DNA of 64,000 nucleotides from Escherichia coli (GTDB lineage Bacteria; Pseudomonadota; Gammaproteobacteria; Enterobacterales; Enterobacteriaceae): NCBI RefSeq assembly GCF_013315695.1, contig NZ_CP054353.1, one strand, 5' to 3'. The notes beneath the pieces were generated by a model. It saw nothing but the letters and a program-made list of their open reading frames with translations, had not been told where the DNA came from and made no database searches. The position numbers and the translations under genes were made by a program. Positions within the stretch are counted from its first letter, which is position 1, and every line of letters begins with the position of its first letter. Below, piece after piece: positions 11,522 to 11,688 of the stretch.

Positions 11522-11688
11522 AACGCCTGTGCGGTGAACTCAGGTTCCGGGGAAATAGTGTCCATCATTGTAATGGACACTATCATGGGAAATGGCTCTG
11601 TCACATCAACAACTACAGTTGCTGACCAGCCGGATGGATGATTTTTTCGCAACCAGAAGACGCTGCCTCCGATCCGGCTTACAACAAG

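Follow-up and report, generated by a model that had tools for sequence, protein, structure and literature searches.

The cvrA-dadX spacer and its variable segment

The window, i.e. the whole stretch of 64,000 nucleotides of Escherichia coli DNA that was analysed (contig NZ_CP054353.1), is 100% identical to E. coli MS 21-1, by which the flanking genes were confirmed. The gene order at the locus is cvrA (+), a 53-aa ORF, a leucine-rich repeat (LRR) gene (+), and then dadX and dadA (-). The coordinates of the individual features are gathered in Table 1.

Table 1. Features of the cvrA-dadX region, in window coordinates
Feature	Position (nt)	Strand	Basis or remark
cvrA	7729-9465	+	Left flanking gene
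IS256-family remnant, in two pieces	9508-9706		Left part of the variable segment; blastn, 82-84% to IS256-family transposase genes
LRR gene, 478 aa, IpaH/SlrP-like LRR region	10085-11521	+	ORF; 3' end enters the IS terminal repeat
IS66-family left terminal inverted repeat and leader	11505-11554	+	Local alignments to known left ends
Terminus of the relic, GTAAGCG	11505-11511	+	Terminal sequence of the family
Palindrome	11555-11583	+	Subterminal inverted repeat, placed in IS66-family elements after the left terminal repeat (IRL) and before the tnpA start
Left arm of the palindrome	11555-11565	+	ATAGTGTCCAT, 11 nt, repeat search
Right arm of the palindrome	11573-11583	+	ATGGACACTAT, 11 nt, repeat search
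Vestige of the tnpA start region (ATC ATG GGA AAT GGC TC...)	11584-11604	+	Homology to intact elements fades here
REP-like hairpin (AGCCGGAT...ATCCGGCT)	11628-11679		Directly after the dadX stop; repeat search and L002 alignment
dadX	11689-12759	-	Right flanking gene

The spacer between cvrA and dadX varies greatly among E. coli genomes. In the shortest junction type (L002), the spacer holds a 30-nt REP-like hairpin, the two halves of which align to positions 9481-9499 and 11658-11690 of the window, and everything corresponding to ~9500-11657 is missing. These limits define the variable segment. As for its left part, the corresponding piece of ~100 bp in K-12 is inverted and annotated as "IS1414 (partial)" in MG1655; the 53-aa "hypothetical protein" ORF (9585-9746) begins inside this IS256-family remnant and extends ~40 nt past it. 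The right part consists of the IS66 relic described below and of ~55 nt of no assigned origin. The REP-like hairpin is a native element of the cvrA-dadX spacer, separate from the IS relic, and forms the right limit of the variable segment.

Among 5,426 complete E. coli genomes, the LRR segment was found in 834, and the region of an inverted repeat just downstream of the LRR gene (the palindrome) in ~4,235, including the LRR-negative K-12. Roughly 3,400 genomes thus carry the palindrome without the LRR gene, because they retain a deletion remnant. The K-12 junction keeps window positions 11448-11900, i.e. the last 74 nt of the LRR gene and the palindrome, with intact arms and a CCTTTTA loop, and the O157-like junction type is kept from 11412 onward. 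The comparison with empty junctions that the initial annotation had proposed was informative in two ways: the palindrome does belong to the insert, since it is absent with the rest of the segment from L002, and it is also present in LRR-negative genomes, which is one half of the observation that had been put forward as speaking against such a link.

The cvrA-dadX spacer is also a hotspot of IS activity and rearrangement. O157:H7 strain Z1626 carries an additional IS3-family insertion in it, and a further deletion variant, strain AVS0754, has cvrA and dadX joined with only ~60 bp between them.

The inverted repeat downstream of the LRR gene

Thirty-four nucleotides separate the last base of the LRR stop codon (TAG, 11521) from the palindrome. 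The repeat search and the ORF coordinates bear out the initial annotation, which had described an 11-bp perfect inverted repeat at this distance from the LRR gene. Its arms are complementary at 11 out of 11 positions (100%) and enclose a 7-nt loop, CATTGTA. As RNA, the 29-mer has a folding energy of -13.6 kcal/mol, and its stem is present in the minimum-free-energy fold of the LRR 3' region. The fold of the palindrome region is unremarkable on the + strand (z -0.64) and strongly structured on the - strand (z -3.55). No match to the palindrome was found in Rfam at E-values up to 1.

The right arm is followed by CATGGGAAATGG, with no U-tract on the + strand and only TTT on the - strand. The G+C-rich hairpin followed by a U-tract that characterises an intrinsic terminator was not found at the palindrome, and the terminator scan reported nothing there, so that the earlier view that this is no typical intrinsic terminator holds. 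The palindrome resembles the REP/BIME hairpins of E. coli in being stable, in having no U-tract and in lying between convergent genes; it shows no relation to REP in sequence, however, and occurs only once in the window.

By itself, the palindrome is statistically unremarkable (P about 0.35 per 64 kb). Simulations based on a first-order Markov model of the window contained on average 0.57 inverted repeats with perfectly paired arms of 11 bp or more and a loop of 3-20 nt, and at least one was present in 35% of them. The palindrome is real as a feature because of homology and not because of repeat statistics. The window holds seven such repeats in total, the palindrome included. The six others are located at 35829 (arms of 24 bp), 52203 (15 bp), 38827 (14 bp), 29360, 27403 and 22231 (11 bp each), and their number is far above the chance expectation of ~0.6.

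A relic of an IS66-family left end

A 61-nt query retrieved the orthologous locus and, with an 85% match, the starts of genes annotated as "IS66-like element accessory protein TnpA". These IS66-like matches were found in hundreds of plasmids and chromosomes, at up to 18 places per genome. With longer queries, the window matched a Pantoea agglomerans plasmid copy (77.8% identity over 90 nt, E 1e-9 against 7.3 Gb), an Enterobacter plasmid copy (78.8%) and copies on the Shigella invasion plasmid pINV, and every one of these matches starts at window position 11504/11505. When positions 11505-11592 were aligned to the left ends of the Pantoea, Enterobacter, Shigella and IS679-like elements, the scores ranged from 36 to 55, vs. 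9.6 +/- 1.4 for shuffled sequences. The alignments to five bona fide left ends likewise begin at 11504/5. The homology stops at 11592, or at 11604 with respect to the Shigella copy. Taken over 66-90 nt, the identity to elements with annotated tnpA, tnpB and tnpC amounts to 74-79%, which identifies the sequence as an IS66-family end.

The register of this end is well defined. In the window, 50 nt lead from the GTAAGCG terminus to the palindrome, and the same offset of +50 was found in L006, L007 and an element of Pantoea stewartii. In intact elements with this spacing, the start codon of tnpA comes 1-3 nt after the end of the palindrome. The plasmid and chromosome copies share one layout: a GTAA(G/C)CG terminus, a 50-nt leader, the inverted repeat ATAATGTCCAT-CATTTTT(T)A-ATGGACACTAT, the trinucleotide CGT and the tnpA ATG. 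An 8-bp target duplication, TATGCGCC, in one E. coli copy (L006) confirms the IS ends. The P. stewartii element is a high-copy IS66-family IS with palindrome arms identical to those of the window. Its flanks vary from copy to copy directly before GTAAGCG in more than 30 copies, which were taken from a scan of species genomes by pattern where the matches listed were mostly P. stewartii contig ends, a biased and incomplete sample; GTAAGCG is therefore the terminus. In a complete plasmid copy of P. stewartii DC283, the GTG start codon of tnpA is 3 nt away from the palindrome, and tnpB comes after tnpA.

The closest relatives belong to a group with a long TnpA (NF038385, "IS66-like element accessory protein TnpA"), which we take to be IS679-like from the annotation of its copies and their element size of ~2.7 kb. 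Members of this group have the same GTAAGCG terminus, the same 50-nt leader and a palindrome directly before tnpA. With respect to the ATAGTGTCCAT-loop-ATGGACACTAT structure of the window, the arms are identical in the P. stewartii DC283 element and agree at 10 out of 11 positions in the IS679-like copies of E. coli and Shigella plasmids; the loop has 7 nt in the window vs. 8-9 nt in the copies of the IS679-like group. Unlike these elements, to which it is 74-79% identical, the window copy has no tnpA, tnpB, tnpC or right end.

Concerning the body of the element, a tblastn comparison of TnpA and TnpB with the window gave no match, and the tnpA-tnpB-tnpC set is absent from the remnant. Because the window lacks IS66 genes and the homology stops at ~11592-11604, the sequence is a relic and not an element. 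Neither a right terminal repeat nor an 8-bp target-site duplication was found, and the flank AATGAAAC (11497-11504) has no repeat. A GCTTAC motif at 11677-11682 was considered as a right terminal repeat, with which a miniature element would run from 11505 to 11682, an idea that arose from its coincidence with a BLAST breakpoint against L002. It was rejected, as the alignment of the L002 spacer assigns the motif to the native REP-like hairpin. The closest intact elements found are only 78% identical to the remnant, with no close full-length parent among the matches. Since no right end or target duplication survives, the original insertion event is beyond reconstruction.

As a whole, we are highly confident that the palindrome is part of a relic of ~90-100 bp (11505 to ~11600) derived from the left end of an IS66-family IS. 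At one time, the left terminal repeat (GTAAGCG...) of an IS66-family element abutted the LRR gene at its 3' end. The body of this element (tnpA, tnpB, tnpC and the right end) is gone, probably through a later deletion, and what is left comprises the terminal repeat, the leader of 50 nt, the palindrome and a vestige of the start codon. A palindrome that had remained unexplained at this locus thereby acquires a clear history, and the segment of the LRR gene turns out to lie between two IS remnants, one of the IS256 family to its left and one of an IS66-family left end to its right. The relic is of a known kind of mobile element, left unannotated at this locus in RefSeq. The same relic is present in K-12 (MG1655, about 1240036-1240133), where RefSeq has only "IS1414 (partial)", which represents a small gain in annotation.

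The junction between the LRR gene and the relic

The terminus at 11505 lies inside the LRR ORF. The last 17 nt of this ORF, including the TAG stop at 11519-11521, fall within the IS terminal repeat, and the last five codons (RKRFM) and the stop are thus IS sequence. LRR homologues in the protein database came from E. coli or Shigella only, with 76-98% identity, and every one of them ends in ...STMKRKRFM; no homologue with a longer C-terminus was found in this database. This shared end indicates that the LRR/IS junction is old and common to all homologues, and that the original C-terminus of the protein is unrecoverable.

The LRR gene is highly polymorphic, with E. coli and Shigella alleles of 437-486 aa and a variable number of acidic C-terminal repeats. 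The 230 nt downstream of it are ~97% identical. The LRR region gave a weak match to models of the SlrP/SspH2 type III effectors, and the NEL domain is absent. No publication on this LRR gene was found in the literature searched. On the Shigella flexneri pINV plasmid (L009), an IS66-family left end with its palindrome (3501-3588) is located just downstream of ospG and ipaH9.8. This left end adjoins LRR-type effector genes, as in the window, and its outer flank, CCTGAAAC, resembles the AATGAAAC flank of the window.

Distribution and covariation of the palindrome in intact IS66-family elements

In intact members of the family, 45-50 nt separate the left terminus from the palindrome, the value being 50 nt for enterobacterial copies, and the start of tnpA follows the palindrome at a distance of 1-25 nt. 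To assess its distribution, left ends were sampled via TnpB, with no palindrome criterion, and grouped into 17 distinct classes. An inverted repeat of at least 9 paired positions (at most one mismatch) was found in the 70 nt before tnpA in 7 of the 17 classes, vs. 2.3% of the control windows (P 5e-8). An eighth class, L252, with arms complementary at 11 of 11 positions, escaped this count only because the right arm contains its start codon. The palindrome is missing or half-kept in several members, namely the L162 type, L219, L240 and ISEc49. It is specific to the left end: in full elements, the right ends lack the motif.

The common core of these palindromes is GTCCA(Y)-loop-(R)TGGAC. The sequence of the arms is conserved across phyla and the loops are variable; the motif also precedes tnpA in elements of Rhodobacteraceae, other Alphaproteobacteria, Gallionella and Blastopirellula. 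In variants, the symmetry is kept by changes on both sides (GAGTCCAC/ATGGACTC and GACCCCAC/GTGGGGAC), and one variant has an unrelated palindrome instead (GACCTTAAGG/CCTAAAGGTC). In an alignment of 22 sequences, 6 rows of which came from a pattern search that had fixed 17 of their positions, 81.8% of the cells are paired and double changes occur in 10 of the 13 pairs. None of 500 shuffles reached the observed values, and slid controls gave 22-46% of paired cells. G-U wobbles are not enriched, with 8 G-U cells vs. 14 unpaired cells in the core pairs (innermost pair excluded).

Three palindromes of the TGTCCAT-N5/6-ATGGACACTAT type were also found in non-IS contexts (L011, 9349-9372; L012, 3867-3890; L013, 1564-1591, Desulfobacteraceae MAG), one of them between rplT and pheS and another upstream of an XRE-cupin regulator. 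An unrelated operator motif or chance may account for them, ~200 chance matches to the pattern being expected over the whole collection.

A putative operator of tnpA

Left-end control elements are known from other ISs: the InsA proteins of IS2 and IS1 bind the left terminal repeat, and IS10 and IS50 have "fold-back" leader structures. Like these, the IS66-family palindrome is a cis element, placed after the left terminal repeat and ahead of the first gene. This first gene codes for a small helix-turn-helix protein of the HTH_Tnp_1 type with a weak match to the "IS2 repressor TnpA" model. In the live element, the palindrome would control the expression of tnpA. The most likely function, as judged from its position before tnpA, its restriction to the left end, its covariation and the helix-turn-helix of TnpA, is that of a putative TnpA operator, which a TnpA dimer would bind to repress its own gene. 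A protein-binding palindrome, as suggested in the initial annotation, is plausible for the intact IS; a host operator at the present locus is unsupported.

A 5' leader hairpin blocking the translation of read-through transcripts is a less likely alternative. The symmetry-preserving covariation fits a hairpin and a dimer-binding site equally well, and the G-U wobbles do not discriminate between the two. In alphaproteobacterial members, the Shine-Dalgarno sequence comes after the palindrome, which argues against sequestration of the ribosome-binding site as a general mechanism: in this respect the alphaproteobacterial palindrome differs from leader hairpins, as it cannot sequester the Shine-Dalgarno sequence. 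Promoter scans found no consensus sigma-70 promoter in the intact left ends.

The operator reading can be extended, more tentatively, to the family as a whole. GTCCA(Y)-N5-11-(R)TGGAC, conserved in Gamma-, Alpha- and Betaproteobacteria and in a planctomycete, might be a family-wide operator through which TnpA represses its own operon, and the E. coli relics (K-12, 1240055-1240083) could then still be bound by TnpA that resident IS66-family copies provide in trans; we consider this proposal possible, its chances being somewhat below even. The literature searched, a set without two key IS66 papers, contained no description of the IS66-family palindrome and no binding or expression experiment on it. 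The covarying palindrome that many IS66-family elements keep before tnpA offers a testable candidate for the control of the first gene in a widespread and poorly studied family.

Fate of the palindrome in E. coli

At the cvrA-dadX locus, the palindrome is a drifting relic. It would have no gene left to control and would behave as neutral DNA. Over 230 nt, the identity among six divergent E. coli lineages is ~97%. Of the 29 columns of the palindrome, three vary (two loop columns and one arm column), a rate equal to that of the flanks. The change in the arm is an A>G substitution in the right arm, giving ATGGGCACTAT, in 3 of the 6 lineages. In MG1655, the palindrome occupies positions 1240055-1240083. 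According to the Term-seq tables for this strain (Adams et al. 2021, PMC7815308, supplementary file 1), the only 3' end of the spacer is that at 1240019/20, on the dadX strand (+). It follows closely upon the REP-like hairpin and precedes the palindrome by 35 nt; for the palindrome itself, these tables contain no 3' end. A terminator role of the palindrome was consequently rejected, given the + strand without U-tract and a K-12 3' end that follows the REP-like hairpin instead.

Three other readings of the palindrome were weighed against descent from an IS end. It could be a functional 3' element of the LRR mRNA, either a stem-loop protecting the transcript from 3'-5' exonucleases or a factor-dependent terminator, kept for the expression of the LRR gene. 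The 11-bp stem is indeed stable (-13.6 kcal/mol), it lies 34 nt past the stop codon within the minimum-free-energy fold, and in the LRR-sense RNA the A>G change of the O157 type still allows pairing, as a U-G wobble (-13.0 kcal/mol). However, the palindrome has been kept equally in the ~3,400 genomes that lost the LRR gene, its conservation does not exceed that of the flanks, and its sequence is accounted for by descent from the IS end; the lack of a U-tract and of an Rfam match and the unremarkable + strand fold (z -0.64) also stand against this reading, which we regard as quite unlikely. The hairpin may still have an accidental secondary role in the stability of the LRR mRNA.

The initial annotation had also taken the palindrome for a possible remnant recombination site that marks where the LRR insert ends on the right. 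Such a role in recombination or attachment would agree with the location of the palindrome within the variable segment, ~75 bp from the right limit, and with the absence of the whole segment from L002-type genomes. This reading is largely refuted, and we give it very little credence. The breakpoints observed are the IS terminus (11505), the end of the IS homology (~11592-11604), the REP-like junction (~11657, with its left counterpart at ~9500) and the deletion endpoints of K-12 (11448) and of the O157 type (11412), none of which falls within the palindrome. No partner copy was found at the left edge or elsewhere in the window, even with up to 3 mismatches allowed. Moreover, in intact IS66-family elements the palindrome is internal, 45-50 nt away from the terminus where the transposition joins occur. 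What stands of the earlier proposal is that a mobile-element remnant lies near the right edge of the LRR insert; the palindrome itself contains no breakpoint and is not a boundary marker.

Finally, a host transcription-factor operator controlling dadX or the LRR gene, or a mere chance palindrome, is just as improbable: the perfect dyad symmetry, the intergenic position and the non-negligible chance of an 11-bp repeat (P about 0.35 per 64 kb) are outweighed, for an operator, by a location downstream of both convergent genes and outside any promoter region, with no promoter-like sites nearby and the dadX-sense 3' end of K-12 mapped 35 nt before the palindrome and not at it, and, for chance, by an 88-nt homology that includes the non-palindromic flanks, which rules it out.

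As for the REP-like hairpin, it occupies positions 1239956-1240020 of MG1655, directly after the dadX stop, and the sole 3' end of the spacer lies just downstream of it; it is probably the 3'-end element of dadAX.
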